Shown here: in pieces, positions 18,091 to 62,504 of the stretch | Layout: each line of letters opens with the position of its first letter | Numbering within the stretch: position 1 is the first letter of the stretch | DNA from: a virus | Virus genome (UHGV): UHGV-1440165 | DNA length: 64,000 nt | Reading direction: 5' to 3' (one strand) | Notes under the pieces: generated by a model | What the model was told of the DNA's origin: nothing | Seen by the model: the letters and a program-made list of their open reading frames with translations, nothing else | Database searches by the model: none | Made by a program: the position numbers and the translations under genes

Positions 18091-18200
18091 AATGTAGCCT
18101 CATGGTGTATTGTACAGCCGTATTATACTGTGATGCACAAATTGAAACGCCCAGCAAATATACCGGGCGTTATTGTTATTGAAGGAGTTTGCTGATTCAG

Positions 18201-45582: not shown

Positions 45583-47793
45583 TCACCGTCTCAACCATTC
45601 TTCCATAGACATGCCGGAACGTTCGTCATAAACCTGGATTCCACCAAAGCCTGGCACGTTCTCTATGGAGTGTGGATCAGGGGCAGACAGCACTCCCCCG
45701 AATGGCATCATCTGTGATTCTTCCATCGCAGACAAACGTCCCCTCATGTCCACTGAGATGCTTGAGTTGGTGAGATCACTAAACCATTCTTGTTTCACCG
45801 CCCATGCATAGAGCACGAGAGGCATTACACAGTCATCATGACAACCATCGTCGGCTTCATACCTTGTCCCAGTCCATACGAATGTACTGAGTTCATCGAT
45901 TGTGTCCTGATCGTCGATAACCAACATCTCACGTTCGATGAGAGCCTTGAGGTTGGCACAACCATTCGAACGCACTTTCTTGTTGGTGTTGATACCAGGT
46001 TCAGGGCGGCGGCCACCAATTCGTTTACCAGTGCCCTTCGCATCTGTCGTGGTGAAGATGATCTCTGGATATTCAATTTCCTGATATAGAATTGTGATTA
46101 CCTGGCCACCCACGTCGTTGTTGGTTTCAACCAGCATCGGGCACGTGCCATACTTCTCGCCCATATCGGCGATAGTGTATGCATACATCATTGGAGGTAT
46201 CGTGTTGTTTCGATACTTGGCCGCAATCTTGTGAGGATAATCTGTGATGTCCAAGATGGTCAGAACAGAGTAATCCCCCTCCACTCCCTTGCCTGTATCG
46301 GCGATACCCATGTAGATGCGCTTCGGATCGTAATCGTGATAGATCTTGGTGAACTCGTTTGGCTCCTGATAGAGCTTCGAGGTCATCTTGTCTAAACACT
46401 TCGCCGGGATCAATGAGCCGACAGAACCACGGAACTTGATACCGAATTCCTGATCGAAACGTGCATCGCCCAGCTTCGCCCTCTGTTTGGATTCCCAGTT
46501 TGGATCTTTGGTGTACGTTGGAACGCGATACCATGGGACCTCTGTGAGTTTGAAGTCGTTGTACTGAGGATGCTCTGGGTTCGCCTTGGTGACGATGTCG
46601 TAGAACAACCCGCGCTGGCCTTTCGGTGTACTGGTCAGGATACAACGTGAAGTCTCTGCAGATGCAATCGCGGGGAATGTAGACTCCCAGAATTCAAAGT
46701 CGTTTTCAATGAACGCCACTTCGTCCACATATAGGAGCGATACAGATCGACCACGGATGGAGTCGGATGATGTCGCATAGGCGTAGATCTTCGAACCGTT
46801 TTCGAACTCGATAAGCGTGGAGCCGAACTTCTCACAACCCTGTTGGAGGAAGAATGGCAGATCCTGATACGCCTTGCGGATACGGTCCAGGATTTCAATC
46901 GCCTGCTTCTCTTTGTTCGCCAGTACCGCGATCTCTTTGTCGGAGTGGAACATCGCATACCAGAGGAGGAACGCTGCCACGACTGTCGTGTTATGGCTGA
47001 GGAACCCACCTGTGTAATAACGCTGATCACTCGACTTGACTTGCAGGTCGAACATGTGATGCATTTCACCAGTCTGCCAGACCTCGGCCACTTCTTCTAA
47101 ACCATCTTCGGTCTGAAGGTAAGACCCGGCCTCCAGGTCTTTGGCGAACACTTCCTTCATGTTGCTATTGAAGAACATGTGATCGTCGGCAACGTGAATG
47201 CGTCGACCTGTGGTGGTGACAACCACATACTCCTGATACTGCTTCGTCTTGTGCGCTGCAATAACCGGAACCCAGCCTTTGTCGCAACGAACAAAATAAC
47301 GCTTGCCGAAGCGGCTGTCTACGAACTTATCGTGCTTGCCAAAGGCATTCAGTGGCTCAGCGTGATTCGGTCCCTCGAAGCGGCTGTGAAGCTCCTCGAT
47401 GGTGATGCTGAACTCTTCCTGGCTGACAGTGTCATACACAGTGATGTAAGTGTCGCCCTTCACACACTTACCAGACTGACGCGCCTGCACGACTGCATTG
47501 AAGCGGTGATCCTGAAAGTCGTGGAACAATTGCTTCTGATAATCGTGCATATCGAAGAGGATGAAGCCCTTATCGATTGTCGTGATCTTGTAGTAGTTGG
47601 CAGCGAAGTAATGGGCGTCCATCGCACACTCGACGAACTCAGATTCCTGTTCATCAGTCAGCATCAACTCTACACGAGGAGCACGCACAGACGGCTTGCG
47701 CATGAACGTCTGGTCCATACGCAATCTGACGTCTTCGATTTTGAACCCCGTCTTTATCGGGGCGTATTCGATATCACGCTTCTGATACGCCAT
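45583..47793 (-). CDS. Terminase large subunit (gp17-like) interrupted by a mini-intein
   Basis: ATG at 47793 with GAAGGTGA RBS (track start 47802 is GTG). Removing the insert restores the Walker A motif ARQSGK-TT. Confidence 0.8.
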   Translation of the reverse strand: MAYQKRDIEYAPIKTGFKIEDVRLRMDQTFMRKPSVRAPRVELMLTDEQESEFVECAMDAHYFAANYYKITTIDKGFILFDMHDYQKQLFHDFQDHRFNAVVQARQSGKCVKGDTYITVYDTVSQEEFSITIEELHSRFEGPNHAEPLNAFGKHDKFVDSRFGKRYFVRCDKGWVPVIAAHKTKQYQEYVVVTTTGRRIHVADDHMFFNSNMKEVFAKDLEAGSYLQTEDGLEEVAEVWQTGEMHHMFDLQVKSSDQRYYTGGFLSHNTTVVAAFLLWYAMFHSDKEIAVLANKEKQAIEILDRIRKAYQDLPFFLQQGCEKFGSTLIEFENGSKIYAYATSSDSIRGRSVSLLYVDEVAFIENDFEFWESTFPAIASAETSRCILTSTPKGQRGLFYDIVTKANPEHPQYNDFKLTEVPWYRVPTYTKDPNWESKQRAKLGDARFDQEFGIKFRGSVGSLIPAKCLDKMTSKLYQEPNEFTKIYHDYDPKRIYMGIADTGKGVEGDYSVLTILDITDYPHKIAAKYRNNTIPPMMYAYTIADMGEKYGTCPMLVETNNDVGGQVITILYQEIEYPEIIFTTTDAKGTGKRIGGRRPEPGINTNKKVRSNGCANLKALIEREMLVIDDQDTIDELSTFVWTGTRYEADDGCHDDCVMPLVLYAWAVKQEWFSDLTNSSISVDMRGRLSAMEESQMMPFGGVLSAPDPHSIENVPGFGGIQVYDERSGMSMEEWLRR
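46990..47466 (-). mobile_element. Mini-intein inserted in the terminase P-loop
   Basis: 159 aa insert beginning with Cys (GK|CVKGDTYI...) and ending ...GGFLSHN|T (His-Asn then Thr). Confidence 0.65.
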
Positions 47794-48481
47794 TGTCTTC
47801 ACCTTCTTCCTTCGGCTGCGGCTCCGCCTGAACGTCGATTACATCTTCTTCAGGAGCAGGTTCTTTGGCCGCAGATTTCGCAGCAGCACGCTCGTCAGCC
47901 CGTCTTTTAGCATCTTCAATAGTCTTCAGCAGATCACGCGAAGACCTGGCCTGTTTGCCGACGTTGACTGTTGTTGTGCCATCAGGAGATGTCGTGACTT
48001 CAACAGTCGTTTCATCACCAGGAGGCGGCTCTCTGTCCCCTGTGACAGCCTTGATGGTTTTTTGGTTCTCCATCAGGTCTTTGTTCAGGCCGCGCATGAG
48101 TTCACCCAGCTCTTTGAAGACTGTGAACGCGCGGGGCGCTTCTGTCGTCGTCGCGAGTTTGGCCGCCTGTCCCATCATGAACATGGTGGCCTCTTGCATC
48201 GCATAGGTCGTGTCACGGATGCGTTTGTAGTCGGTGGTGGCATCAGTGTCTTCGAAGTCTGGAACTTTAGACTCCTTGGACTTCAACTCTTCCGGGTCCA
48301 GGGATGGCGGGAACACCACAGGCTCGTACCCTGCAGGCTTTTCACCCAGCCACTCACCTGTATCTGGATCGTAATCCACACCAGCCTTTGGAGTTGTTTT
48401 CTCCATGACCTCTTGAGCGACTTCATCCCTTGCATGGATAGCATCAAGAGTGCTCAGCAAACGTTCCGACATGTTACTCAT
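47774..48481 (-). CDS. Putative terminase small subunit (by position)
   Basis: ATG at 48481 with GGAGA RBS; 3-prime end overlaps the terminase large subunit start; charged, low-complexity C-terminus. Confidence 0.4.
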   Translation of the reverse strand: MSNMSERLLSTLDAIHARDEVAQEVMEKTTPKAGVDYDPDTGEWLGEKPAGYEPVVFPPSLDPEELKSKESKVPDFEDTDATTDYKRIRDTTYAMQEATMFMMGQAAKLATTTEAPRAFTVFKELGELMRGLNKDLMENQKTIKAVTGDREPPPGDETTVEVTTSPDGTTTVNVGKQARSSRDLLKTIEDAKRRADERAAAKSAAKEPAPEEDVIDVQAEPQPKEEGEDNGVSEA

Positions 48482-48483
48482 AA

Positions 48484-49179
48484 TCAATCTCCAGGATGAT
48501 GTACACCGTCTTTGTCAACACGGAACCACTCAGGCAGTTCCGACCACGGCGTTTTCAAATCATTAGACATTTCAATAATTATCTCTTTGATTCCGTTCGG
48601 ATCTCCGCCGCCACCCTGGTCCACCCAATAATCGTAGCCATAGATGAACCCACTGAGCACGAAGGTGAACGTGCAGTCGACGTGTGGAGATTCGCTGGCA
48701 TCCCCTTCCCAGTTGTCGGACATCTGGTGCCCGGTCAGCTGGATCTTGATCTTCTGATCTTGCTGAAGAGTGTCGTTGTCCTTGATGGCACAATCCAGAG
48801 AAGGAGTGTACACAGAATAAATCTGCTCCAGCACCTGCAACATCTCCACCAGTTTCTTGGTCCGGATATTGTACTCGAAATCGATGTTGACTGGGATTCG
48901 CTGTTTTGCCCCCGCCGTCTGTGTTGTTTGACGGTTGTGGAAGGACTTGGTCACGCTCTTATTCGGTTCGAATTGCCCAAAGCTGAAGGTTGCGAACGGC
49001 AGCATATTGGACGGCACGTTCCTGTTGAGGTCATTGCGCCGCCCGATTGCCATATGCAGGGGGACTTCCATCAGGCCACGTTCTGTGTTCACCTTCAGGT
49101 CCGACATGATGGTGGCAAACAGATTGATGTACTTCAGGAACGACTCGTGATAGAAGTATTTTTCAAATGGTCTGGCCAT
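48484..49179 (-). CDS. Putative tail completion/sheath stabiliser protein (gp15-like by position)
   Basis: 231 aa ORF, ATG start, in the slot that T4 gp15 occupies. Confidence 0.35.
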   Translation of the reverse strand: MARPFEKYFYHESFLKYINLFATIMSDLKVNTERGLMEVPLHMAIGRRNDLNRNVPSNMLPFATFSFGQFEPNKSVTKSFHNRQTTQTAGAKQRIPVNIDFEYNIRTKKLVEMLQVLEQIYSVYTPSLDCAIKDNDTLQQDQKIKIQLTGHQMSDNWEGDASESPHVDCTFTFVLSGFIYGYDYWVDQGGGGDPNGIKEIIIEMSNDLKTPWSELPEWFRVDKDGVHHPGD

Positions 49180-49181
49180 GG

Positions 49182-49832
49182 TTAGTCTCCGAAGTCAATC
49201 TTCAGTTTGTCTAGCGCGAGGTCTTGTTCTAACACATCGGCCTGCGCATTATCAGTCTGAAGAGACGAATCTTTGTACACACCCGGATCCCCTTCTTCGT
49301 CCAGGATAGACAGACGCTTATCAATGTCGTCGATCTCTGGTACGCCAGTGTCGAAGTTCTCGTTGCCGTACTGGAACAACGTGCATGGCAGGGAATAGGT
49401 GTGCCACTTGCCGAACTGCATGAAGTCTTCGTCATTGTTCGGGTTGTTCACTTTGAAGATCTTGTTCGCCAGCGGCAGGTAAATCAAATCACCTTCCTGT
49501 GGCTGTTGTTCGAGGCCGACACCGTTGCCAATGACCTCTGCGAATCGACGACGAGAAATAGAGAACGTGACCTCGTCCTGCAGCTGGATACCCCCGAACT
49601 TCTCCCACATCTGGGTGTTGAAGCCCTGGTAGTCCTGCATGTACGCTTCGATGTCGAACGCCTGGTCGAATCTGTGGTTGGCATCGTTGGTGATAGGAAA
49701 TTTTTCAACGATGGAACGTGGTATATACTTGATGTCTATCCCACGCAACTCAATCATTTCCTGTACCAGGTCATCAATCAGCTTTTGGGTGCCGTTGTGT
49801 CCGGTGTAGTTGAAATATTTTGAAGTGGCCAT
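49182..49832 (-). CDS. Putative neck protein (gp14-like by position)
   Basis: 216 aa, ATG start; preceded by a late-promoter-like motif. Confidence 0.35.
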   Translation of the reverse strand: MATSKYFNYTGHNGTQKLIDDLVQEMIELRGIDIKYIPRSIVEKFPITNDANHRFDQAFDIEAYMQDYQGFNTQMWEKFGGIQLQDEVTFSISRRRFAEVIGNGVGLEQQPQEGDLIYLPLANKIFKVNNPNNDEDFMQFGKWHTYSLPCTLFQYGNENFDTGVPEIDDIDKRLSILDEEGDPGVYKDSSLQTDNAQADVLEQDLALDKLKIDFGD

Positions 49833-49856
49833 ATCAATACCCTCAATTTTGAAGGT

Positions 49857-49863
49857 ATTTAGT
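49857..49863 (-). promoter_or_regulatory. Late-promoter-like motif (GACTAAATACCTT)
   Basis: About 25 nt upstream of the 49832 start. Confidence 0.45.
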
Positions 49864-49891
49864 CGAAGTTTATTCTTTTGAGGAATAGCTC

Positions 49892-50104
49892 ATGCAAGTG
49901 GAAGACATCAAAGAAACGCGCGATGGTCGCCGGGTTCGTATTATCTGTATTGATGCGAAGATTGGCGGTGGGGTTTACAATACTGTTGGGCTGGTGAAAG
50001 AACCTGATGGCACCGACTTCATTGAGTGGTGGAACATCACTGAAATGACAGAAGACGGTCTTGTGCGAGGCAGTGGGGACGGCAGTTTAGATCTCAAGCT
50101 GTAA
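49892..50104 (+). CDS. Small hypothetical protein on plus strand
   Basis: 70 aa, ATG with GAGGAA RBS; followed directly by a canonical intrinsic terminator. Confidence 0.45.
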   Translation: MQVEDIKETRDGRRVRIICIDAKIGGGVYNTVGLVKEPDGTDFIEWWNITEMTEDGLVRGSGDGSLDLKL

Positions 50105-50131
50105 AAGAAAGCCGGGGAAACCCGGCTTTTT
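50105..50131. terminator. Intrinsic terminator, bidirectional architecture
   Basis: AGCCGGG-GAAA-CCCGGCT followed by TTTTT on the plus strand and by a T-rich run on the minus strand. Confidence 0.65.
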
Positions 50132-50132
50132 G

Positions 50133-50885
50133 TTATCCCATGTAGAAGTCGATAGGGTACTGCTGACCAGTACGCAGTTCTTCCTCCAACCGCTCGATCT
50201 CCGCTTCGGCCTCGCTGAACATAGTATCACCATCCAGCTCGATACCGCCAGGGAGACGGATGCCTCTTGCCTTCTTCAGCACCTCTGCCCAACGGCGTTT
50301 GACCAACGCTGTCGCATATGCCTTCAGCCACATGTCATTCCATGCTTCTTCATTGCCCTCTACCTCTGGGTCAATGTTCTGGAAACATTTGAACGCCAGA
50401 GCCTCGTCCTTCGTCAGGGCGAATTGAGGGTAGAGCCTGCGTTGGAATTTCTTGTACACGAAGGTGCGCTTCACATTCAGCACACTGGTGATGTCAGACA
50501 GGCGCTGCTGCATGGACACGTAGTCAATCAGGCGGATGGAGACCAGAGCCGACTTCGGCACCAACATGGCCTGCGCCATCTGCCACTGAGGGGTTGCCCA
50601 GTTGCCGATAGATTCGATCGGCGGACCAGGAATTACTTCGGTCACGTCATCGATGTCTTTGGGGAATTCGATGTAGCCGTTGGTGATGGTTTCTTCAGTC
50701 ACAACATGGACGAAGAAAGCGTCTTGGCTGCCATCGCGGTGATACTCCCAGAATTTCTGTAGAGCATCATCGACAGCGTCTGACACCTGTGATGGGTCGA
50801 GGTTGATCTGAATTACAGGTGCCCCCAATTTTTTGAGGATGTAATTCATAAACCCCTTGCGGTCTCTGATGGAATTAACGGACAT
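50133..50885 (-). CDS. Putative neck protein (gp13-like by position)
   Basis: ATG at 50885 with AAGGGGA RBS (track start 50903 is GTG). Confidence 0.35.
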   Translation of the reverse strand: MSVNSIRDRKGFMNYILKKLGAPVIQINLDPSQVSDAVDDALQKFWEYHRDGSQDAFFVHVVTEETITNGYIEFPKDIDDVTEVIPGPPIESIGNWATPQWQMAQAMLVPKSALVSIRLIDYVSMQQRLSDITSVLNVKRTFVYKKFQRRLYPQFALTKDEALAFKCFQNIDPEVEGNEEAWNDMWLKAYATALVKRRWAEVLKKARGIRLPGGIELDGDTMFSEAEAEIERLEEELRTGQQYPIDFYMG

Positions 50886-51213
50886 TGGTGTTCCCCTTAC
50901 CACTCTGGAGATCAGATACTGTAATCCGCAGAGTTCGCACGTCGTCGGACAGACTGCTGCTATTGAGTTTTAATTCAGCAACATTCTGCTTGACGTAGTT
51001 GACGTCTGTGTTCAACACAGCGATCTTCTCACTCATATCGTTGACTTTCACAAGGATCTGGTCAACCTTGTTAGAATCTCGCTCAACCACGTCAAGTCGA
51101 TTCTCGAACTTGCCCATCATCCAAACAACAGAGCCGACGGAGACTATCGCCGCCGTCAGCACCCCGGTGAGGATCGCTTTCACATCGATCACGCTGTTAG
51201 TTTGAGTTGTCAT
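50875..51213 (-). CDS. Membrane-anchored coiled-coil protein
   Basis: ATG at 51213 with AGGAGG RBS; N-terminal hydrophobic helix AILTGVLTAAIVSVGSVVWMMG followed by coiled-coil-like sequence. Confidence 0.5.
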   Translation of the reverse strand: MTTQTNSVIDVKAILTGVLTAAIVSVGSVVWMMGKFENRLDVVERDSNKVDQILVKVNDMSEKIAVLNTDVNYVKQNVAELKLNSSSLSDDVRTLRITVSDLQSGKGNTNVR

Positions 51214-51445
51214 CTTGACCTCCTGACGGGAGTTCGATCCCGAGGTGTTCTGCCAACATCTGGACAGTACTGTTAAGACGCTCAATCTGGGCAGCCTGGT
51301 CAACGATGACTTGTTCTCTGGTCTCTTGTTGCTGGCGTGCACGTAAGGCCGCCAACCCCGCCGCATAGTCTGTATTGACGATTGCGCCAGGGCAAGAGTT
51401 GCTTCTCATCATTGATGCGTGCCCCTGAACTTTTACTCCACGCAT
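51197..51445 (-). CDS. Hypothetical protein
   Basis: 82 aa, ATG start; overlaps the downstream gene start by about 17 nt. Confidence 0.4.
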   Translation of the reverse strand: MRGVKVQGHASMMRSNSCPGAIVNTDYAAGLAALRARQQQETREQVIVDQAAQIERLNSTVQMLAEHLGIELPSGGQDDNSN

Positions 51446-51496
51446 AATCTTATCCTCTAGGTTGTGGCGGGGTTGCCCCCGCCTTTACATTTCTAT

Positions 51497-54400
51497 TTAC
51501 GCCAGAGCAATCAGGCGGAAATCCTTGAACGATGGAGGAGCCACACGGTTGCCACGAACCAGCGCTCTCACCTTCACGGCAACGAACGGATTCGTCGCGC
51601 TCACAGTCTTGTCGTACTCGTACTCGAAGAATGTGGATCCATCGTTCACCAGAGGCGACAGAGGTGTCACGGTTTCCCATGCCACGCTATCCATATCTTG
51701 ACCTGCACGGAGCAGTTTGACCTGCACGGCCATGGTTGACTGCGACGGCAGCATTGCACCAAAGTATAGCTTAATGGTCGAACATGGGTTATCAAATCCG
51801 ACGTCTTTGGTGATGTAGCGGAACACGTCTTCAAATGGATCAACCCCGAAGGTGTTGAAGACCACTGTGAAGTCGTCTCCGTCAACCATTGGCGCAACGA
51901 AGTTGTTGGACTCACTGCGCGTCATGGTAGCCCGAACCTGGAAGTCGCCCACCTGACGATAGATGCCCTCTGTTGGGAGGTACACGTTCGTCTCGGATTC
52001 GAACTCAATCCAATCGGACATTGAATTGGAGGTCGCATCACGGTAGCGGTATTCCAGTTTTAGAATTGAACCTTCCAGAGCCGAGTTCGTGGCGCTGCCA
52101 TAGAACATATCGACCAGATAGTTCCCCAGGTACGAAGCGTCATCACCACCAATTTGTCCGCTGGAGGTAGCCGCCGCGCCCACATCGATGGTGAAGTTGC
52201 TGAACGCAGCATCAGTCACGACATGTGTTTTGTTCAGTTGCTCTGGAGTAAACCCACAGCCGCCTGTCAGGCCGGACAGGGTCACACTGTTGCCCGCAAC
52301 CAGACCGTGGCCAATCGCATCGATCACGATTGTTGAAGCGCCCGAGGTGCAGTTCAACTCATTCAGACCCAGAGGGCGAGGCTTCGGACCAGCTTTCACA
52401 TCGAAGGTGACGATGTTTGCACCAGCATTGAAGTTCGCGCGATACACACGGAATTTCAGGTCTGCCATCTGGTTTGGAGACCAGGTGCTTCCGTTTGAAG
52501 ACGTGAAGAACACGCCAGTGTACGGCTGCTTGGCGATATACTCGTTGGACAGAAGGTTCTTCTTGCCCATCTCTGCGATATATGCGTTGTAGTCCTGAGT
52601 GTTCGCCAGCAGAACGATAGCGAATTCAGTACCAGCCTGCAGATACACAGGGTAATCGAACGTGAACTTCGTAGCCGTCTCAGAGTTGTTGGAGACATTC
52701 ACCTGGTCCGGAGTCAGCGTCTTACGAGTGATCACGCTGTTAGACGGCAGACCGTTGGACATCTCGCGGATCTCCAGTGTGATCGGCACATCACGCGATT
52801 TCGTGGACAGGAAGACTTCCACACCTTCGATGTACTCACCACCGACACTGCTCTGCACCATGAAGGACTGAGCAATCGGGTCTTTCCACTTCTTGATCAG
52901 TTCAGTGTTAGAAGTGGTTTCAGTACTGGAAGACGCGGTGTAACCCAGAACACGGGTGTTCAGATAAGTCTTCTGGATACCCTGTTTCTTGCCGAAAGAT
53001 TTGTGAACAATTTCGGCATTGGTCAGAGTGTCATCGGCAGACTTGCTGTCAACCGGGCTATCCGTCAAACGGAACACGTTATCGCCAGTGTTGAAGCGGT
53101 CTGTTTCTGTCACAGGCACACGGAACACACCTTTGACAGTACCGCTGGCATCTGTCATCAGGGGATCGCCGAAGTTACCAGACTCAGGCTTACAGAACGC
53201 ACTGACAGCACGATTTGAGAAGAACGCATACATCTGGGTGAACGGACGCAGGCCGCTGCCTTCAAACGCGATGTCAGACTGACGCATATACGGGATGACC
53301 TGAGTCTCCACAATCTGCTCGCCAGTCATGGTCGTGGTTGTTGTATCAGTGTACGTGTAAGTGATCACATCACGGGTAGACACTGTGGTGCGGTAGCGGT
53401 AGCCCCACTTGCCGACCTGGGTCTGGTATTCGGTTGTAGAAGAAGTCTTCCACGTACCGTAAACGGAACCCGGCTGGATAGCCCCACGAGTGTTGATCGT
53501 TTCGTTGATCACACGCGGTGCGACATAATAGTTCTCAAACCAGTAGTCGGTGGTCGGGTTCAGTTTGATGTAGCCTTCCCAGTTGAACACGGCGTATGGG
53601 TTCACGTTGATGGTGGTAGTCGCATATTCCTGATTCACAGAGATTTCAGGAGTGTAACGACACACAACCATTCCATCCATAACCTTATCCCAGTTCACTG
53701 GAGTCAGGTCAACGGCATTCTGCTGAGTGAACGGGCGTAGACGACCATTGTCGGTATCAACAGAGCCCATCCAGTCGGAAGACAGATCGTCAATCAGACG
53801 GAAGTCTTTGAACGGGTCGGCGGCGATACCATTTTTGAATCGTGGGTTGCCAGTGATAGGGTCGAACACCTGCTGGGTCATGGCTGATGATTCCAGCTGA
53901 GACAGGGAGGTGTAATATTCGACGTTAGAAATACGCGTCTCCAGCTTCCCGATATCACGCATCGTGTAGCGGCGGTTGTCGACAGTGCGAATCTGGATAT
54001 CGTCGATGTCAGCCGTATACGGCGGGATCAGCATCTCATACAAGCGCATGGCGTTGTCTGGGATAGCCGGGGCTGCCAGGTTGTTGGAGCTGATACCACG
54101 AGCGATGTTGAACACGCCGTTTTCTGCCAGGTACACAGCATCAATTCGAGGCAGATAATACTCTGTGTCCAGGATTACAGCCGTGTTCGGGCGCACCATA
54201 TCGGTATCTGAAGTCCCGTTGGCAATCTTCGGACGGAAATCCAAAGAATCTGCCAGGCTGTACACGGTCCCAGAAGTGCGGGATGTGTAGGTCGGGATAT
54301 CCTGGTAGTCGATAGAGGAGTACGAGTCCGCGGAGAAGAAGTCCCCGGCGCTGTGAGCGAAGTATGAGTACACCACTGTGAAAGTGCCTGAGATTGCCCC

Positions 54401-56320
54401 TGCAGCGGAATTCAACGTGGATGGATAGTAACCCGCATCGCGCTGCCCGCCGTCCAGGGTAAATCTGTTGGTCACATCGGCGCCAGTAGAGTCTTTCACA
54501 CTGATAAGTTTGTACCCGTCCAGGTTAGTCAGAGCCACAGACGTGGAAGAAGTGAAGGTCACTGTTTGAGTCACTTCAGTCACTGTCTTGGTTTTGATGT
54601 TTGCCGTCGTGCGCACCATCATCGCCAGAAGGCTGATCGTCTGGTTGGCATAACTCGCACCCAAGGAAATCTGCAGAGCAGAACCCACCGGAGTACCAGT
54701 CAGTGCCAGGCCAGAGGAAATGTCGAACTGAGCTGTCGTGCCGTCTGCTTTTGCTGCAGAGTACAGAGAAAATTCAGGACTGAAGCTGTATCCCAGAGGA
54801 GCAGAAATCGAACCGGAGCCAGTTGCGCCCAGAGTAACCTTGTAGGTGCGCAGAACCGAATAGTTGATGTCGATCACACCGCTCGGAGCAAGGGTCTTAA
54901 CACCGCTCACAGGCAGAGGGAACACCAGATCGATTGAAGAACTCTGAGAGAACTGGTTCGACTCCAGGTCTGCAGAGAACATGGTTGTGCCACTTTCTTC
55001 ATAAGCGATCTTGGTCACAGTGGACATGTCACCAGTCACCGTCAGGTCACGCAGGTAAAGTTTGAATTCTGTACCAGTACGTTCGGCCGAGATACACAGA
55101 GCAGTTGCCTGAAGGACGCTGGAGGCGTTCAGGAGCTTGTAACGGATAGTGCGTGAGATAACCGGGACGCCCTTGGAGTTCTTGGACACCAGATAGTTCC
55201 CGGTTGCCACAGCCACAGGCGTGTTGTTCAGTACTTCAGTGTCACGGGCTTTGTCGACGTTCACCAGGACTTCACCCAGGTTTTCGATACGACGACCACG
55301 AACATAGGAGACCCCCGGCTTCATAACAGCCACGAACTTGCTTGAATCACCACCTTCGGCTGGGGTATACACGCCGCCGTTGTTGTTCTGTTTCAGGTGT
55401 TCGCGCAGGTCGATCTGGTGCGGAGAAACGTTGTAGTCACCTGATTCTTCATAGGTGCGCTGCGCCATCGTGTCTTCGAGGATATTGTAGGTGGACTGTG
55501 TCACCATGGACTGAATACGCCCATCTTTGACCTTAGCCAGTTCCACAAAGTCCGGCACTTGTTCATCGTAGCCGAAAGCCTGGAGAACCATATCGATACG
55601 GAGACGATGCGCGCCCGGCGCTTTGGAGTTCGGAGTACCCTGAGCATTGGAGTACAAACTCTCATCTTCTGCTTCGGTGACGATGGTCTCGGTTACTTTG
55701 AACCCAACTCGATGTGAAGACGTGTTGGATGTCTTGTCCACGATTAGAGTTGCTGGCTCAACGTCCAGGAACATACCACGAACAAAGTACACGCCACGAG
55801 TCATGCGCGCAACAATAGAACCGCCGACAGTGGCAGCAACACCATAACCGATGCGAATAAAGTTATTGTTGACGTCATAGGTGTTGAAGTACAGGTTGTC
55901 ACCAGCTTCGAAGCCGTCAGAGTTCCCGCTTTCGGTCATCTCCAGAATGGCGTACATCGTGTCTGGTTCAGTAACATAGCGCTCCAGGGACAAGACGCGA
56001 GCCTTCGCATTGTTGTCCTTACCCAGGACATACAACTCCGGGATGTTTTCCAGATCAGTGAATTCAGTACCGCCTGCCAGAGTGAACTTCATGGATACCG
56101 CAGAGTTCGTGATCGTCAGGCCGCCGGGGATAACCATTGATCCGTCTTTGAACAGATGATTCCCAAGTTTCTCCAACTGGTCTTGGAAGATGGTCTGCAT
56201 CTGGTTCAGTTCGCGAGTCTGGATTTTGACCGGAGCTGGACGGAATAAGATGCGTGAAAAACGCTTCTCAGGGTTCCAGTCATCCCAGTATGGGCGACGG
56301 TTTAGATTCATTTCTTGCAT
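51497..56320 (-). CDS. Giant virion structural protein (1607 aa), putative tail/baseplate or adhesin component
   Basis: Single uninterrupted ORF with ATG start and upstream late-promoter-like motif; T/S/G/N-rich composition typical of fibre or baseplate proteins; no specific motif recognised. Confidence 0.55.
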   Translation of the reverse strand: MQEMNLNRRPYWDDWNPEKRFSRILFRPAPVKIQTRELNQMQTIFQDQLEKLGNHLFKDGSMVIPGGLTITNSAVSMKFTLAGGTEFTDLENIPELYVLGKDNNAKARVLSLERYVTEPDTMYAILEMTESGNSDGFEAGDNLYFNTYDVNNNFIRIGYGVAATVGGSIVARMTRGVYFVRGMFLDVEPATLIVDKTSNTSSHRVGFKVTETIVTEAEDESLYSNAQGTPNSKAPGAHRLRIDMVLQAFGYDEQVPDFVELAKVKDGRIQSMVTQSTYNILEDTMAQRTYEESGDYNVSPHQIDLREHLKQNNNGGVYTPAEGGDSSKFVAVMKPGVSYVRGRRIENLGEVLVNVDKARDTEVLNNTPVAVATGNYLVSKNSKGVPVISRTIRYKLLNASSVLQATALCISAERTGTEFKLYLRDLTVTGDMSTVTKIAYEESGTTMFSADLESNQFSQSSSIDLVFPLPVSGVKTLAPSGVIDINYSVLRTYKVTLGATGSGSISAPLGYSFSPEFSLYSAAKADGTTAQFDISSGLALTGTPVGSALQISLGASYANQTISLLAMMVRTTANIKTKTVTEVTQTVTFTSSTSVALTNLDGYKLISVKDSTGADVTNRFTLDGGQRDAGYYPSTLNSAAGAISGTFTVVYSYFAHSAGDFFSADSYSSIDYQDIPTYTSRTSGTVYSLADSLDFRPKIANGTSDTDMVRPNTAVILDTEYYLPRIDAVYLAENGVFNIARGISSNNLAAPAIPDNAMRLYEMLIPPYTADIDDIQIRTVDNRRYTMRDIGKLETRISNVEYYTSLSQLESSAMTQQVFDPITGNPRFKNGIAADPFKDFRLIDDLSSDWMGSVDTDNGRLRPFTQQNAVDLTPVNWDKVMDGMVVCRYTPEISVNQEYATTTINVNPYAVFNWEGYIKLNPTTDYWFENYYVAPRVINETINTRGAIQPGSVYGTWKTSSTTEYQTQVGKWGYRYRTTVSTRDVITYTYTDTTTTTMTGEQIVETQVIPYMRQSDIAFEGSGLRPFTQMYAFFSNRAVSAFCKPESGNFGDPLMTDASGTVKGVFRVPVTETDRFNTGDNVFRLTDSPVDSKSADDTLTNAEIVHKSFGKKQGIQKTYLNTRVLGYTASSSTETTSNTELIKKWKDPIAQSFMVQSSVGGEYIEGVEVFLSTKSRDVPITLEIREMSNGLPSNSVITRKTLTPDQVNVSNNSETATKFTFDYPVYLQAGTEFAIVLLANTQDYNAYIAEMGKKNLLSNEYIAKQPYTGVFFTSSNGSTWSPNQMADLKFRVYRANFNAGANIVTFDVKAGPKPRPLGLNELNCTSGASTIVIDAIGHGLVAGNSVTLSGLTGGCGFTPEQLNKTHVVTDAAFSNFTIDVGAAATSSGQIGGDDASYLGNYLVDMFYGSATNSALEGSILKLEYRYRDATSNSMSDWIEFESETNVYLPTEGIYRQVGDFQVRATMTRSESNNFVAPMVDGDDFTVVFNTFGVDPFEDVFRYITKDVGFDNPCSTIKLYFGAMLPSQSTMAVQVKLLRAGQDMDSVAWETVTPLSPLVNDGSTFFEYEYDKTVSATNPFVAVKVRALVRGNRVAPPSFKDFRLIALA

Positions 56321-56353
56321 TTTGATGCTCCATCGATAGGTGCCATTATAGAG

Positions 56354-56360
56354 ATATTTA
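56354..56360 (-). promoter_or_regulatory. Late-promoter-like motif (TACTAAATATCTC)
   Basis: About 34 nt upstream of the giant ORF start. Confidence 0.45.
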
Positions 56361-56416
56361 GTATACAGCCAACCGAGGAATAGAAAGAAATAAGCCCTCC
56401 GAAGAGGGCTTAGTTT

Positions 56417-56896
56417 TCATGTCGTACTCCATTGAGACACCCTGATAAGCCATGCAGACACACCCAAACCTCCGGTGGTGGTGGGCGTTTGTCCTGGGTC
56501 GACTGTCTTTGGAAGTGAGCCGCCCCAACGATATAAAGAAGTTCCGTCGCTGACGACTTCGTTTTTCACGCGAATGGTGAATCCAGAAGTGAAATCTTCA
56601 GTCAGAACCACGAACTCTTCCCGAAGCACGGCGAGTGCTCCGAGATCTATAGTTCCTGCAGAGTGCACAAGAACTCCATCTATCAGGCTGGTGATGGTAG
56701 CGCCAGCGGGCAGGTTAGAAGGCAATGCATAGGAGCGCTGAGACACCTTATCGTAGATCACCTTGTAACCAGTCAGGGTGGATCCTGGTTTAGCATACAG
56801 AACCTCGGACTTCTTGCACCCGAACTTGCGTGCAATAGAGTCCTTGTTGGTCTCTTTCGAGACCGCACCTTTCGGCTGTGAAAATTGCGGATTCAT
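56417..56896 (-). CDS. Hypothetical structural protein
   Basis: 159 aa, ATG start; between tailspike genes and the giant ORF. Confidence 0.4.
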   Translation of the reverse strand: MNPQFSQPKGAVSKETNKDSIARKFGCKKSEVLYAKPGSTLTGYKVIYDKVSQRSYALPSNLPAGATITSLIDGVLVHSAGTIDLGALAVLREEFVVLTEDFTSGFTIRVKNEVVSDGTSLYRWGGSLPKTVDPGQTPTTTGGLGVSAWLIRVSQWSTT

Positions 56897-57058
56897 AACG
56901 AATCTCCTGTTGTTCTCAATATCGTGAATGATAACTCATTAATGTGTAAAACTCAAATGCGAAACGCCGGACTACGGCAGCAACGTGACGCGGCGAATGC
57001 ACAACTGGATTTTATTCTAAGTAAAAGTACAGAGCCGTAGCCCCGTACTTTGAATTGT

Positions 57059-59497
57059 TTACCAAGACCAAAGATTACCATTGGTATCACAGTTTCCAGT
57101 AGCAACAACCTTAGTCAGACCAGAACCACCCCTAGTCTGGAAGATGTTACCAGTAAGGTTAACAAGTGAGGTGTTTCCATAAGATATATTAATATCTTCA
57201 GAATACCCATAAACTATATTAGCTGACACAGTTGCAATTGCACGGCTATCCGAGTTTGTATTATCCAACCTGATACCATACTGACCAGGTGATACTGATG
57301 CATGTACAATCTGGTTGTTACTGATATTAACGTTACCAACGCTGCGAATATTACCAACAGTAAGAGCGGTATATGCCCCAGGAGTTGGTGCAGTAAACAG
57401 CATTTGATTGCCATTAAAGGAAAACCACCGCAAGCCTTGGGTTGTTGTGGTATTGGTAGTTGTTGTAACTTGGATGTTTTCAAACTGGTTATTATCAATC
57501 TTAACAGTTGCACAGGATTTAATGTGCAGAATTGCCTGCTTATTAAATGAAGTAAACTTGTTATTGACAAAGCTAACTGAAGTTAGTACATCTTGGTCTT
57601 GTTCATAATAAATACCACCAATTGATGTATACTCTGATGGGTTATTAAGAACAGCCGTGTTACCATCAAAGATAACACCCTTGCAAAGACCAATAGCAAC
57701 TAAGCAACCATTTAGTGCATCCTTGGTGTTATTACCTACAGCTACAGAATCAGTACAACTCTCAAAGTCAATGCACACATCTTTGCAGCCATCAACAGCG
57801 TTGCCAGTGATAGTAACCCTATCACCCATAGCACCCCAAATGCCACCTACGGCATTACGTACAGTGTTACCAGAGATTGTTACGTCATTACACTTACGAG
57901 GCTTAGTCATGTCATAGCCCTCATCTGCTTTAAGTGCATCTCCACCAACGAACTGGATACCTTCCTTGTGACCATCAATGTAATTACCGCTAATACGCGC
58001 CATCTTTGCATATGCAGTATAGATTGCAGCTGGTCTGAATGGCGCCCCAAGCACACCATCACCACTACCATAAGACTGACAGTTTACAACTTCAATGTTA
58101 GTACAGTAATCTGCATCCGTTGTAATAAGTGGATATGCACTACCAGCACCAAATCCAATATCATGTGCAATCATGGGGTTTGGACACTTACGAGACTTAG
58201 TAGAGAATAGCGCCATTATCACAGAGACACAGTTACGCATTGAAACATTGTTACAGGAGACTAAGTTAACAGCTGGTGCAAGTGATACACTAGATGCGGC
58301 ATCAAACCTAAGACCTTTAAAAACTATGTTAGATTTCTCAATACCTGTAAATACAGCTTGCCCCTCTTTATCAAGCGTCACCTTGATAATGGCATTATTA
58401 CCACTATGTATCTGGTTAGATTCGAGCATAAGTACACCAGAGTCAACAAGATAAGTACCAGCTGGGTAATCTATCTTGCGTGCACCAGATAATATTGCAG
58501 ATTGAAGGGCTGCGGTATCATTTGTAACACCATCACCGATAGCCCCAAAGTCACGAATGCTGATCGTCTCCAGTAGTTTGTCATGAACTGTACGTGAGAC
58601 GGCACTTGCTAACGGCTGTTTCATCCCTATCAGGGCATCACCTAATACAACGTTAGTAGTGTCCACAAGGTCGTCGCGTAGGTTAGGGTCAGTTTGCGGA
58701 ATCCAATCCGCAGTACCGACCGGGTTAGCCCCTGCGGCTATGACGTGCGGCAACGTCCCGGCCCATGAGTACCACGTCTTACTCACAGGGTCATACACTA
58801 CCTTATTACGGTCGTTAACACCGAGTGTACCTCCAGTATAGAATGTAAACCCAGCGTCAGTGTAGCCATTTTCAATCGCCCAATTAAGTTTTAATTTAAC
58901 CAAGTCAGTATCAATATCATTAAGTTCTTCCTGTACAGTTTGACCGGAAGACGTACCAATCAGACTTGCGCCTCCATCGGAAGAGAGCGCCAGGTAATTC
59001 TGCTTAATGGACATTTCTGCCACGACCCAAACTCCAGCCGCAGGCGAACCTGTGAGGAAACTCACAACTCCTGTTGTGCTGTTGTAGCTGTAGTTGACGC
59101 CAGGAACCTGGAACCGCCCATCGACGTACAGGGACTGCACCCCATAAGATGTGAAGTCTGGGGTGAATGAGGTCTCGTTGCCAACGGCCTGGAATTTGTA
59201 GATGCGGATCCCGTTTTCATAATCTTCTGGGGACAGGATCTTGTCAAACAGACAGTACACTACATCATCAGCCTCCAGCGCTCGACCGAGGTTGACTGTG
59301 TTGCCATCGATTTCGTAATTGTCTACGGGAACCTGAACTCCACCATTGATGGTGATGAAGCCTGTAACGGGATAGAACGGGAGGGAGATAAACGTCTCTC
59401 CACCCGTTGCTGTGTAAGTGTATGGAATCTGGTGCGGGGCTGTTACAACCGCTCCAAAGATGCTCTCGACGTTTCTGGTCATTTGAAGATACCCCAT
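57059..59497 (-). CDS. Tailspike protein with pectate-lyase-type right-handed beta-helix (putative depolymerase)
   Basis: 812 aa; IRDFGAIGDGVTNDTAALQSAI (about 58493..58558) is the hallmark N-terminal motif of pectate-lyase-superfamily beta-helices; N/T/G-rich repeats downstream. Confidence 0.7.
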   Translation of the reverse strand: MGYLQMTRNVESIFGAVVTAPHQIPYTYTATGGETFISLPFYPVTGFITINGGVQVPVDNYEIDGNTVNLGRALEADDVVYCLFDKILSPEDYENGIRIYKFQAVGNETSFTPDFTSYGVQSLYVDGRFQVPGVNYSYNSTTGVVSFLTGSPAAGVWVVAEMSIKQNYLALSSDGGASLIGTSSGQTVQEELNDIDTDLVKLKLNWAIENGYTDAGFTFYTGGTLGVNDRNKVVYDPVSKTWYSWAGTLPHVIAAGANPVGTADWIPQTDPNLRDDLVDTTNVVLGDALIGMKQPLASAVSRTVHDKLLETISIRDFGAIGDGVTNDTAALQSAILSGARKIDYPAGTYLVDSGVLMLESNQIHSGNNAIIKVTLDKEGQAVFTGIEKSNIVFKGLRFDAASSVSLAPAVNLVSCNNVSMRNCVSVIMALFSTKSRKCPNPMIAHDIGFGAGSAYPLITTDADYCTNIEVVNCQSYGSGDGVLGAPFRPAAIYTAYAKMARISGNYIDGHKEGIQFVGGDALKADEGYDMTKPRKCNDVTISGNTVRNAVGGIWGAMGDRVTITGNAVDGCKDVCIDFESCTDSVAVGNNTKDALNGCLVAIGLCKGVIFDGNTAVLNNPSEYTSIGGIYYEQDQDVLTSVSFVNNKFTSFNKQAILHIKSCATVKIDNNQFENIQVTTTTNTTTTQGLRWFSFNGNQMLFTAPTPGAYTALTVGNIRSVGNVNISNNQIVHASVSPGQYGIRLDNTNSDSRAIATVSANIVYGYSEDINISYGNTSLVNLTGNIFQTRGGSGLTKVVATGNCDTNGNLWSW

Positions 59498-59518
59498 AGA
59501 GGATTTGCCAATATGGGG

Positions 59519-59525
59519 TATTTAG
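59519..59525 (-). promoter_or_regulatory. Late-promoter-like motif (GACTAAATACCCC)
   Basis: About 22 nt upstream of the 59497 start. Confidence 0.45.
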
Positions 59526-59549
59526 TCTAAAGAACGATTTGTAGATTTA

Positions 59550-62504
59550 TCAAATTATGCAATAACTAATAACCCCAATTGCTGTAGATGCGGCATCATT
59601 TGCATTCATTGCAATCATCACATTAAGTCCAGAACCTACGTTCTCTCGGCTCAGTATTACTTCACCTTCTCGCCCAAAATCGCTTTTTATAACAACAGGC
59701 GAGGATGGGTTATTTACATTGTTGATGGTTATTGAAGCGCTTACTTGTGTGTTTCCTGATGCAGCATTTGTCGGTACGGACACAATGTTATATTTAATGT
59801 AACATTGATGTCCATATGGAACGTTGAAAAAACCAACGTTCTTAGAGACATCACCAGTAACAGCTGTGTTTAATGTAACCTTCCCATCTTCTTTGAAGCC
59901 ATTGTAACCTTTCCAATCTGATTCAATCATACTGAAAGGAACTGGTCCGAGTTTTCCATCAGTACCAGAGTAACAGTTACTGCTAGAGAAGATGAACTGG
60001 CGTGAGTCAAATTCAGCAGGTCCAGTAGGTGCCTGGATATATAGAACCTTATTTTTAGTTTGAGCGAATCCATTACCAGTAATTAACAGTGGGAATGGGA
60101 AACCTCCACTTAGTGCTGTTGTTGATTTCTGCACCCAGATATCATATCCATTGAACAGGAAGCAGTTACCAATAATGGTCTTAGAGCCTTCTGAGGCCGG
60201 ATTGCCCACAGATGCCGGGATAGTGAAGTTAACCCCAATAGGGTTATTTTCAATCTGTGAACCACTCATATAGAAACTGGTATTCCACCCCGCAACAATA
60301 CCCACTGTTGTGTTTTCTGAAATGGTGCAGCCAATAATCGACTGAGAGCCAGCAAAGGAAAACTCGCTGAGTGATAAGCCACGACCGTTAAGAACGAACT
60401 CACACCCAAAGAAACGGTTTTGGTCAGAACCACCTTCGGCAGAGCCATCTACCTTATCGATGTTACAGCCCGTGGAGCACCACAGGGCGTGCACGTTATA
60501 GAAGTTGTTGAGGTAAACAACACCCGCTAACTTAATACCAAAATCAAAATAACGGATATGAAGACCACTGAAGTTGTTCTCACGAACATGGAAAACTCCG
60601 GCATTCACCGTTTCGTCAACAGATACCCCACAGTACCCATTAACGTTAAGATCTGGCCCCTCTAACATCAAATCCTGTATTTTTACACCAGTTATCCCAT
60701 AATCGAATCGATATCCATCTAGCACAGGCACCAGTTTAAAAATGTCATTATGACCCACTGCCTTAAAGCATGGCATCTGTTTACGAGCTACGGTGGATCC
60801 GCCGTCACCAACAATTTTGATTGGCTTGTTGATGGTGATCGCAGATGAAATCTTATACATAGACTTTGGTGTAGGCACGATGAGCGTACCACCCCACGGG
60901 GTAGCATCAACAGCAGCCTGGGTTGCTGCCGTATCATCAGTACTACCATCACCAGTGGCAAACCAACCAAGGTTAACAGCACCAACTGTTTGGCGTTTCC
61001 AACGTAAACCTGTAGTGTCTACTAAGATGGTCCCCCCATTATCAGCAGAAGTCGCATCAGTGGGGTCGGATTCAAAGATACCAAATCCGCCATCGTATTT
61101 ATTAACCTTTCCTAGACTGTAAACTCGACCATTAACTGGATTTGTATTGGCACGAACATCTGCATAATTGGCAGCACCAATCAAACCAAACCCCAATTTT
61201 CCTGCCAGATTTTTTCTCAACTCGGTTGCCGAGTCGGCAACATCCAAAAGAGTGACTGTCGTGTTCGTACTGCCAACGACATATGTCAGCTGATTACCAG
61301 AGACACTCACAATAGATGCCGTGGTTGGGATGCCCGCTGGGAGTCCCCAAGATTTCTGCGCGACCACGTCATAGATGACGGTCTTACCATTCAGCTTGGT
61401 GATCGTATCAGAACTGAGGATCACCTGAGAGACAGGCACGTTAGCTGCCCGAGCAACTTCATTTGGGGTACGGTCAATCTGGTTGTACAGGGTCGGATCA
61501 CCGTTGATGACAACAACCACTTCATCACCCGCATCCAGCTCATCCGCAAGTGTGATCAGCTTCGTCGTGGAATTATACTGGAACCCAAGATTCTTTTGCT
61601 GGCGTGTGCCGTTGATAAAGATCTCAGACACTTCTTCTGCGTCGACGTCCAGTGTAATTGTTGTCTCGCCGCCTACCGCCGAGCCAGAGTTGTACACCCA
61701 AGTGATGACAGTACCGCCGCCGGAACCACTACCGCCTGCTCCGAGTTGGATAGGGACATACTGGATGATCTGCAATTCTGAACCAGAGGTCAGAGCTGGG
61801 CTGAAATTAACATTGTAGCCATCCAGGGAATACTTGGAATCCAGCAGGCGCTTGCCATCGACGTAGACATCAACGATAGATGGCTGGGTCGCCAGCGTCA
61901 CCTGAGTCGTGTCGGTGGCCAGGGTTGTGGTGAAGATTGTACGGCTGTACACGCGCCCTTGCCCCAGACCAACTCCAGCAGTGACGATCCAACCACGAGC
62001 ATCACCAGACCAGGTGAAAGTGGCAGACACGCTATCCGTGGATAATGTCATCGGTTCAGTAGAACCATAGATGGCATAACCGTTCGGATCGATGGTGAGA
62101 GGATAGACGGAGAATTTACCGTACAGGTCGCATACAGTAACAGAGTCGCCAACGCGCGTAGGATCCGGAAACACCACCGTAGAGACGCCGGAAGAGTTAT
62201 CCACCAGATAGCCCCGCCCTTCAGCCAAAGTTGCCGTAGAGGCATGAGGAAGCACTTCCCAGCGGATACCTCCACCACCCAGAGGTAGCCAACCCCCGTT
62301 CTCGTAATAACCTTCGAATTCGTCGGACGCAGAATTGTATCGAACAGCGGAAGGAAGACCATCCACAGCATCACCTTCAGGGACGGTCATCACCGCATCC
62401 GGTCCATGTTCGATGATACCAGTGTTGAGGACACCAGCCAGTTTAGATTGCTCAGCAGTTTCAAGCCCGAGAGGGAAAATCGGCTGTGTTGGTTTGTTAG
62501 CCAT
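59550..62504 (-). CDS. Tailspike protein with pectate-lyase-type beta-helix (second, distinct)
   Basis: 984 aa; VNLGWFATGDGSTDDTAATQAAVDA motif mid-protein; long N-terminal region preceding the beta-helix. Confidence 0.7.
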   Translation of the reverse strand: MANKPTQPIFPLGLETAEQSKLAGVLNTGIIEHGPDAVMTVPEGDAVDGLPSAVRYNSASDEFEGYYENGGWLPLGGGGIRWEVLPHASTATLAEGRGYLVDNSSGVSTVVFPDPTRVGDSVTVCDLYGKFSVYPLTIDPNGYAIYGSTEPMTLSTDSVSATFTWSGDARGWIVTAGVGLGQGRVYSRTIFTTTLATDTTQVTLATQPSIVDVYVDGKRLLDSKYSLDGYNVNFSPALTSGSELQIIQYVPIQLGAGGSGSGGGTVITWVYNSGSAVGGETTITLDVDAEEVSEIFINGTRQQKNLGFQYNSTTKLITLADELDAGDEVVVVINGDPTLYNQIDRTPNEVARAANVPVSQVILSSDTITKLNGKTVIYDVVAQKSWGLPAGIPTTASIVSVSGNQLTYVVGSTNTTVTLLDVADSATELRKNLAGKLGFGLIGAANYADVRANTNPVNGRVYSLGKVNKYDGGFGIFESDPTDATSADNGGTILVDTTGLRWKRQTVGAVNLGWFATGDGSTDDTAATQAAVDATPWGGTLIVPTPKSMYKISSAITINKPIKIVGDGGSTVARKQMPCFKAVGHNDIFKLVPVLDGYRFDYGITGVKIQDLMLEGPDLNVNGYCGVSVDETVNAGVFHVRENNFSGLHIRYFDFGIKLAGVVYLNNFYNVHALWCSTGCNIDKVDGSAEGGSDQNRFFGCEFVLNGRGLSLSEFSFAGSQSIIGCTISENTTVGIVAGWNTSFYMSGSQIENNPIGVNFTIPASVGNPASEGSKTIIGNCFLFNGYDIWVQKSTTALSGGFPFPLLITGNGFAQTKNKVLYIQAPTGPAEFDSRQFIFSSSNCYSGTDGKLGPVPFSMIESDWKGYNGFKEDGKVTLNTAVTGDVSKNVGFFNVPYGHQCYIKYNIVSVPTNAASGNTQVSASITINNVNNPSSPVVIKSDFGREGEVILSRENVGSGLNVMIAMNANDAASTAIGVISYCII

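Follow-up and report, generated by a model that had tools for sequence, protein, structure and literature searches.

The 1607-residue gene beside the tailspike cluster of an Agtrevirus-like phage: assignment to vriC and a probable place in the tripod family of baseplate proteins

Introduction

The 64,000-nucleotide stretch of virus genome UHGV-1440165 (the window, by which we mean this DNA at its full length) contains an open reading frame (ORF) of 1607 codons that lies between neck and tailspike genes, and its size and position raise the question of which part of the virion it encodes. A first-pass annotation had seen in it a late structural gene without recognisable domains, encoding perhaps a baseplate hub, an adhesin or a tailspike-anchoring scaffold and central to host recognition. 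Here, we assign the ORF to vriC and suggest that its product is very probably a long-form member of the DUF4815 'tripod' family, together with gp119 of phage 812 and gp106 of phage A511, and a conserved large baseplate protein of the Ackermannviridae. The assignment builds on homology in sequence and fold, gene context, conservation and a repeated promoter motif, all from the present analysis, and on published work for the presence of the protein in virions.

The gene itself is not new: it has a name and is found widely, and both the family to which it belongs and its likely role have been published before. The comparison of VriC with the A511 and 812 proteins was reportedly first made by Plattner in 2019 in J Mol Biol. 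According to a review of 2024, VriC is similar to baseplate proteins of A511 and phi812 and may form the 'prong-like structures' seen by electron microscopy under the baseplate (PMC11721090). In the Ackermannviridae, vriC is used as a conserved marker that flanks and locates the tailspike cluster (PMC8432352, PMC11721090), and host range in this family tracks tailspike subtypes (PMC8432352).

Results

The ORF list and its translation place the gene as follows.

51497..56320, minus strand: vriC coding sequence for a probable DUF4815/tripod-type baseplate protein, 1607 aa plus stop (ORF, Pfam, PDB and pSal-SNUABM-02 match)

The frame starts with ATG and is uninterrupted and, as about three codons in 64 are stops, 1607 open codons are far beyond chance. 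Database homologs cover 100% of the ORF and share its start. The giant ORF of the first-pass annotation is therefore confirmed, on a strand that had been left unstated. The closest deposited protein is gp109 of Salmonella phage pSal-SNUABM-02 (QOI58342.1, 99.8% amino acid identity), from which the product of the window gene differs by a few substitutions and in nothing else of note. With megablast the gene matches 196 phage records, 185 of them with at least 80% coverage, at 77-99.6% nucleotide identity: 99.6% to pSal-SNUABM-02 (Agtrevirus, Ackermannviridae), 97.3% to Yersinia phage CAU_YEP3 and about 78% to Ag3, Limestone-type Dickeya phages, kutterviruses and others. The window is thus from an Agtrevirus-like phage of the Ackermannviridae.

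Judged by these alignments, the ORF is assigned as the ortholog of vriC, an Ackermannviridae family marker gene. It has high full-length identity to members of the group, it occupies the conserved position beside the tailspike cluster, opposite the wedge genes, and it is syntenic with annotated vriC in at least 185 phage records. The VriC proteins of this family (pSal-SNUABM-02 gp109, the orthologs in CBA120, Vi01 and Ag3, and Sajous1 gp140) represent the same gene, with lengths of ~1607-1613 aa, in the same slot between the tailspike cluster and the neck genes; across Kuttervirus, Agtrevirus, Limestonevirus and Taipeivirus the orthologs are ~78% identical to the window gene in nucleotides and 80% in amino acids. 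In GenBank the matching genes are labelled 'hypothetical protein', 'unknown structural protein' or 'virulence-associated protein VriC/VrlC'.

The statement that the protein has no recognisable domains does not hold, as Pfam, two PHROG families and a solved structure all match. DUF4815 matches at 206.2 bits against a gathering cut-off of 30 (E = 1e-60), and PHROG 358 and PHROG 877 match strongly. A phmmer search against all PDB sequences retrieved a single protein, a 1152-aa 'DUF4815 domain-containing protein / ORF65' (9euf_0, E = 2.6e-59), which is present in 81 chains of 15 PDB entries of the baseplate of Staphylococcus phage 812. The alignment runs from residue 4 to 1585 in VriC and from 3 to 1128 in the 812 chain, in four collinear stretches (VriC residues 4-72, 198-389, 701-1305 and, weakly, 1428-1585) and at an identity of ~22-28%, and a profile made from 47 homologs finds the same chain at E = 6.3e-125. 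With tblastn, VriC residues 715-1307 match gp106 of Listeria phage A511 (29% identity, E = 1e-40), and the Kayvirus 'adsorption-associated tail protein' is matched as well. Based on the entries that contain the 1152-aa chain, its high chain count, the fold matches and the Kayvirus annotation, we infer that this chain is gp119, the tripod protein of phage 812; the entries are the whole-baseplate and the arm-segment A/B reconstructions of the 812 study (PMC13433997).

Two overlapping fragments of VriC, each aligned with 46 full-length homologs of 28-89% identity, were modelled as monomers with AlphaFold2 (AF2). Residues 1100-1607 gave an all-beta model with a predicted local distance difference test score (pLDDT) of 84.9 and disorder limited to 46 residues at the cut end. 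The model of residues 1-1190 has a pLDDT of 76, confident beta domains at 65-780 and three helices (35-56, 280-289 and 787-815), and a Foldseek search of the PDB with this model returned as its only significant matches the 812 baseplate chains with the 1152-aa protein (E = 3.7e-23 to 1.5e-14). Collinear homology to a structurally characterised member and the same fold are thus both found for VriC. Combining the alignments with the models divides the protein into seven segments.

56105..56320, minus strand: N-terminal conserved segment, residues 1-72, with the long helix 35-56; aligns to 812 tripod residues 3-70 (phmmer, AF2)
55730..56104, minus strand: beta-rich insert 1, residues 73-197, ~125 aa versus ~28 aa in the 812 tripod (phmmer boundaries, AF2)
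55154..55729, minus strand: conserved region, residues 198-389; aligns to 812 tripod residues 99-271 (phmmer, AF2)
54221..55153, minus strand: beta-rich insert 2, residues 390-700, ~311 aa versus ~114 aa in the 812 tripod, with several confidently predicted beta domains
52406..54220, minus strand: best-conserved core, residues 701-1305; aligns to 812 tripod residues 386-951 and to A511 gp106 (Pfam, phmmer, AF2, tblastn)
52040..52405, minus strand: insert 3, residues 1306-1427, a small beta domain like residues 192-261 of the phage phi92 endosialidase; ~34 aa in the 812 tripod
51500..52039, minus strand: C-terminal beta-sandwich, residues 1428-1607, weakly similar to 812 tripod residues 986-1128 (AF2, alignment)

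The strands of insert 1 are predicted with a pLDDT of ~80-87, and this insert is the least conserved part among distant homologs. Within the core lie the long helix 787-815, long beta-hairpins and, at ~1147-1305, a PHR/lectin-like beta-sandwich. VriC and the 812 tripod (gp119; PDB 9EUF, 9EUI, 9TIC and others; EMBO J 2026, PMC13433997) have in common the helices, a long beta-hairpin region, a lectin/PHR-like beta-sandwich and a C-terminal beta-sandwich. Moreover, domains of the 812 tripod have been described with CBM16, CBM61 and Cwp84-like folds, of which the first two are carbohydrate-binding module (CBM) families (PMC13433997), and this corresponds closely to the domain folds of VriC. Pfam searches with the three inserts and the C-terminal domain alone gave only noise up to E = 10.

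The alternative that VriC forms the baseplate hub or the central spike can be suggested from its large size and its location in the tail module, and from these only; we give it very little credence. No gp27/gp5-type, lysozyme or beta-helix spike match was found with Pfam, PHROGs, PDB sequences or the fold search, and the peripheral tripod protein accounts for every significant match. Likewise, Beta_helix, Pectate-lyase and Tail_spike_N matches, which the three genes upstream have, are absent from VriC, and its models consist of beta-sandwich and beta-barrel domains plus helices; a tailspike or depolymerase was rejected as a reading of the gene, as was the hub.

Several points weigh against the reading of VriC as a tripod-type baseplate protein. 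(i) The identification of the 1152-aa chain as gp119, rather than as another 812 baseplate protein, is itself indirect. (ii) The template modelling scores of the N-terminal model to the solved 812 chains are low, because the relative positions of the domains differ. (iii) The same model has low-confidence stretches at residues 790-1000, made of long hairpins; this region probably needs the oligomer, and the low-confidence hairpins and helices at 790-1010 would be compatible with oligomer-dependent elements. (iv) With its three inserts (~73-197, 390-700 and 1306-1427), VriC exceeds the 812 tripod by 455 aa, and it comes from a phage of a Gram-negative host. (v) VriC does not have the LysM-like C-terminal 'hook' of the 812 tripod, which was not found with Pfam in C-terminal segments up to E = 10; the hook is a feature of a Herelleviridae subgroup and not of the whole family, and its absence would be expected in a phage that targets an outer membrane rather than thick peptidoglycan. 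(vi) A PDB search with the neighbouring wedge proteins gave no sequence homolog of the 812 arm scaffold, the docking loops of which hold the tripods: a 389-aa protein has only weak ubiquitin-like matches to PDB sequences, a 284-aa protein has none and a 592-aa wedge-region protein is T4 gp6-like, so that unlike in phage 812 no arm scaffold or arm segment partner is detectable by sequence beside vriC. (vii) A literature search found no high-resolution structure of an Ackermannviridae baseplate, cryo-electron microscopy included. Given the greater length, the three inserts and the lack of the hook, the surface contacts of VriC must differ from those of the 812 tripod and would involve the outer membrane or lipopolysaccharide (LPS), not peptidoglycan.

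The family to which VriC is assigned is large. In a library of 1.8 billion proteins it comprises 4804 clusters (at 50% identity) at E <= 1e-3 and 2311 at E <= 1e-30, with homolog lengths from ~950 to 2470 aa, and tblastn matches occur in 1692 phage genome records, among them ~440 of T4-like cyanophages, 342 of Staphylococcus, 245 of Bacillus and 164 of Salmonella phages, in addition to Vibrio, Enterococcus and Listeria phages. Homologs of ~1600 aa in Vibrio phage Kuja, Delftia phage PhiW-14 and Ralstonia phage RSP15 match over 100% of the length at 34-38% identity. The 'VrlC / virion structural protein' of T4-like cyanophages of Synechococcus and Prochlorococcus belongs to the same family, with a coverage of about two thirds in several separate pieces and without the C-terminal 300 residues of VriC. 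For A511 gp106 the match at BLAST level is confined to the central and C-terminal core of VriC, with none for the N-terminal half or the last 300 residues. A511 gp106 forms the pyramidal structures of a double-layered baseplate, and CBM-like C-terminal domains have been described for it and for the Bacillus phage homologs Deep-Blue Gp176 and Vp4 Gp120 (PMC11406892). The adhesin of the first-pass annotation comes close in that VriC is a homolog of these tripods, which in 812 and A511 sit on the baseplate arms and carry lectin/CBM-like beta-sandwiches.

This distribution also bears on the view that the phage carries VriC as a virulence factor of bacterial type. That view is found in the VriC/VrlC annotation of many GenBank records and in one paper that lists vriC among putative virulence genes (PMC6783827). 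Against it stand the location of the gene in a late structural module, a fold-level homolog that is a solved baseplate protein and the thousands of family members in lytic phages. The name VriC itself presumably goes back to no more than a similarity to VrlC, from the vrl locus of Dichelobacter. In a scan of bacterial genomes, the family was carried mostly by metagenome-assembled contigs, probably phage DNA, and the scan gave nothing on the origin of the 'Vrl' name. Moreover, an ortholog is abundant in purified virions: VriC of kuttervirus Sajous1 (gp140) was detected with 311 spectra in CsCl-purified particles, among the top five proteins (PMC10892097). Published data on an ortholog thereby speak against an absence from virions, the finding that would have refuted the first-pass annotation. 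We reject the virulence factor on this evidence and consider that it has next to no chance of being correct.

As a third alternative, VriC could be the primary receptor-binding protein that sets the host range. It is predicted to have lectin/CBM-like beta-sandwich domains, relatives in phages of Gram-positive bacteria are annotated as 'adsorption-associated tail protein' and one paper terms VriC 'previously associated with host range' (PMC10892097). However, among 24 close homologs the identity per 40-residue window is 62-96% and even along the protein, with no hypervariable segment, and VriC is ~80-82% identical in amino acids to the proteins of phages of Dickeya, Klebsiella, E. coli and Salmonella. 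The comparison with CAU_YEP3 points in the same direction. The two genomes are collinear at 96.7% over 47780-56411, through vriC to the upstream terminator; beyond it, nucleotide similarity all but disappears over the tailspike cassette (56412-61930), to return at 61930 within the part of the TSP4-like gene that encodes the N-terminal anchor. The vriC genes are 97% identical in nucleotides in phages with unrelated tailspike cassettes, and the break lies exactly upstream of vriC. Against the near-identical pSal-SNUABM-02, the window is unmatched only at 59527-61345, where the 984-aa TSP4-like gene encodes its C-terminal receptor part; the window phage therefore appears to be a tailspike-swap variant of a deposited phage. 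From these comparisons, 56412-61930 and 59527-61345 are predicted to mark recombination boundaries of the host-range cassette.

The even conservation and the break in similarity just upstream indicate that vriC is a conserved flank of a swappable host-range cassette and not a part of it, and they argue for a conserved structural role of the protein. Together with the published link between tailspike subtype and host range, this makes a host-range function of VriC quite improbable. VriC is a conserved structural or secondary-contact component and not the host-range determinant, and the proposal that the gene is central to host recognition is not borne out.

Between 44 and 64 kb every gene is on the minus strand except for one small ORF. 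In the order of transcription, a baseplate wedge gene (cut by the window end) is followed by the gene for a 389-aa protein, a TSP4-like, a TSP2-like and a TSP1 stub gene and vriC; after vriC come genes for an 82-aa virion protein, a PHROG 3961 protein, neck proteins, a gp15-like sheath stabiliser, the terminase subunits and the sheath. The neck proteins are Ad2 and Hc2, of which Hc2 corresponds to the T4 neck protein family. This order bears out the location between neck and tailspike genes and places vriC in a tail and baseplate module, as expected for a late structural gene. Of the tailspikes, the 984-aa protein matches the baseplate-anchor structure of CBA120 TSP4 with its first 338 residues (7rej, E = 4e-149) and the 812-aa protein matches the CBA120 TSP2 structure (6w4q, E = 1e-75).

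That vriC always adjoins the tailspike cluster could mean that the branched tailspike complex is anchored to the baseplate through VriC as its platform. In contracted phage 812 a fiber domain of the outer tripod touches RBP2, and the literature found names no baseplate partner of the TSP4 anchor domain, both of which would fit such a platform. On the other hand, the receptor-binding proteins of 812 and A511 attach to the arm scaffold or the wedge-3 protein and not to the tripod, the TSP4-like gene of the window encodes its own conserved N-terminal baseplate anchor, and the family is also found in phages without tailspike clusters, i.e. in T4-like cyanophages and Herelleviridae. We therefore regard a tailspike-anchoring scaffold as unlikely.

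The following signals surround the gene, the first four of them within the 96 nt upstream of it.

56391..56412, minus strand: terminator-like site at the end of the tailspike transcription unit upstream, a 9-bp hairpin and then TTTCTTTC
56355..56361, minus strand: CTAAATA, late-promoter-like motif, 35 nt before the ATG (repeated motif count)
56345..56372, minus strand: sigma-70-like TTGGCT-16 nt-TATAAT, 10/12 matches, overlapping CTAAATA (consensus match alone)
56329..56332, minus strand: GGAG ribosome-binding site, 8 nt before the ATG (sequence read)
51466..51483, minus strand: perfect 7-bp GC hairpin GGCGGGG-GCAA-CCCCGCC, 13 nt after the vriC stop, with no coding-strand T-run (sequence)
29356, 32554, 39307, 39663, 42858, 45579, 49862, 56361, 59525 and 62548, minus strand: the CTAAATA copies of the window, often CTAAATAcc/tc (window scan)

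The window contains CTAAATA 10 times, on the minus strand alone, against an expectation of ~4 copies per strand, and nine of the copies lie 25-65 nt upstream of the starts of late structural genes (the sheath, neck and both tailspike genes and others). A motif that is repeated, confined to one strand and placed before structural gene starts is a real signal, so that the late-promoter-like motif previously seen in front of vriC, at 56361-56355, stands. CTAAATA is a candidate late-promoter element of the window phage, with promoter function inferred from this pattern. The T4 late consensus TATAAATA occurs in a single copy in the window, on the other strand, and sigma-70-like sites upstream of vriC are no commoner than in shuffled sequence. 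At the other end of the gene, the next gene starts at 51445, 20 nt past the GC hairpin, and the gap between the two genes is 51 nt. As the hairpin has no T-run and lies 20 nt before a start codon, read-through into the next gene is likely, and rather than terminating transcription the hairpin at 51466-51483 may act in RNA stability or attenuation.

Several neighbours deserve a description of their own. A 159-aa ORF (56417-56896, minus strand) consists of a TSP1-type tailspike N-terminal domain alone (Pfam Tail_spike_N; positions 1-151 of 666 in PHROG 32933), without the beta-helix receptor-binding part; it terminates at the terminator upstream of vriC and is also annotated in pSal-SNUABM-02. 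This stub may be a truncated tailspike that is still able to fill a docking site in the branched complex. The 389-aa structural protein (62557-63726, minus strand; PHROG 3838) is conserved and encoded between the wedge genes and the tailspikes. In a search of PDB sequences, its residues 80-126 gave weak ubiquitin-repeat matches (best E = 8e-5), with no stretch that passes alone. A beta-grasp domain of the ubiquitin type may be present, and the protein is a candidate for the attachment of the tailspikes or VriC.

The sole plus-strand ORF among the late genes here (49892-50104, 70 aa) is flanked by the two neck genes, and both relatives, pSal-SNUABM-02 and CAU_YEP3, have it annotated as a hypothetical protein. 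A homing-endonuclease-like gene with a NUMOD3 motif is present between the small and large terminase genes of both close relatives (CAU_YEP3 20541-21430; pSal-SNUABM-02 17316-18205) and is missing from the window (~47755-47779), as is a 720-nt gene between neck genes of pSal-SNUABM-02 (14504-15223; ~49818-49870 in the window). Both differences look like presence/absence polymorphisms of mobile endonuclease-type genes.

Discussion

The homology, the models and the conservation data suggest that VriC is to be sought at the periphery of the baseplate, and the solved relative indicates what it may do there. In phage 812, twelve tripod trimers, or 36 copies per virion, are held by the docking loops of the arm scaffold; when a receptor is bound the tripods rotate and refold, their lectin-like domains turn to the cell wall, and the tripods then interlock and stabilise the contracted baseplate (PMC13433997). 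Trimer formation, a docking site, glycan binding and a conformational switch would apply to VriC by analogy with this system.

By combining this analogy with the data for the window, we suggest the following sequence of events: (i) VriC would be produced late from its own CTAAATA-type promoter, (ii) VriC trimers would most likely dock at the periphery of the baseplate wedges, (iii) the lectin/CBM-like beta-sandwiches would face the cell surface, or swing towards it, after the tailspikes have engaged and cut O-antigen or capsule, (iv) once the tailspikes have cleared the polysaccharide, VriC would most likely contact a conserved component of the envelope and join the baseplate switch, and (v) its conformational change and contacts between tripods would help to fix the baseplate on the envelope and to stabilise the state after contraction.

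A more specific proposal is that the long (~1600 aa) tripod form of phages with Gram-negative hosts is both the 'prong' of the Ackermannviridae and a conserved sensor of a secondary receptor. In this model, the three extra domains, one of them endosialidase-like, and the C-terminal sandwich, which is not of the LysM type, would contact a conserved feature of the outer membrane or the LPS core after the tailspikes have cut, and the rearrangement of the tripods would trigger sheath contraction. We put this forward tentatively, as a possibility that we do not at present favor. If correct, it would extend the trigger mechanism of the 812 type from Gram-positive to Gram-negative hosts and would explain how one conserved machine operates behind interchangeable tailspikes. 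As the idea was already floated in the 2024 review, it would then confirm a published suggestion and not be a new discovery.

The evidence supports relabelling vriC as a gene for a tripod-type baseplate protein. This is mostly a matter of annotation, as most records keep the gene under the misleading name 'hypothetical' or 'virulence-associated' protein. The practical side is that, on account of this naming, therapeutic phages have been flagged in print as carriers of a virulence factor (PMC6783827). For the Ackermannviridae, which are widely used in biocontrol, VriC is the obvious candidate for a conserved, tailspike-independent step in adsorption and triggering, a question that is already recognised in the field.

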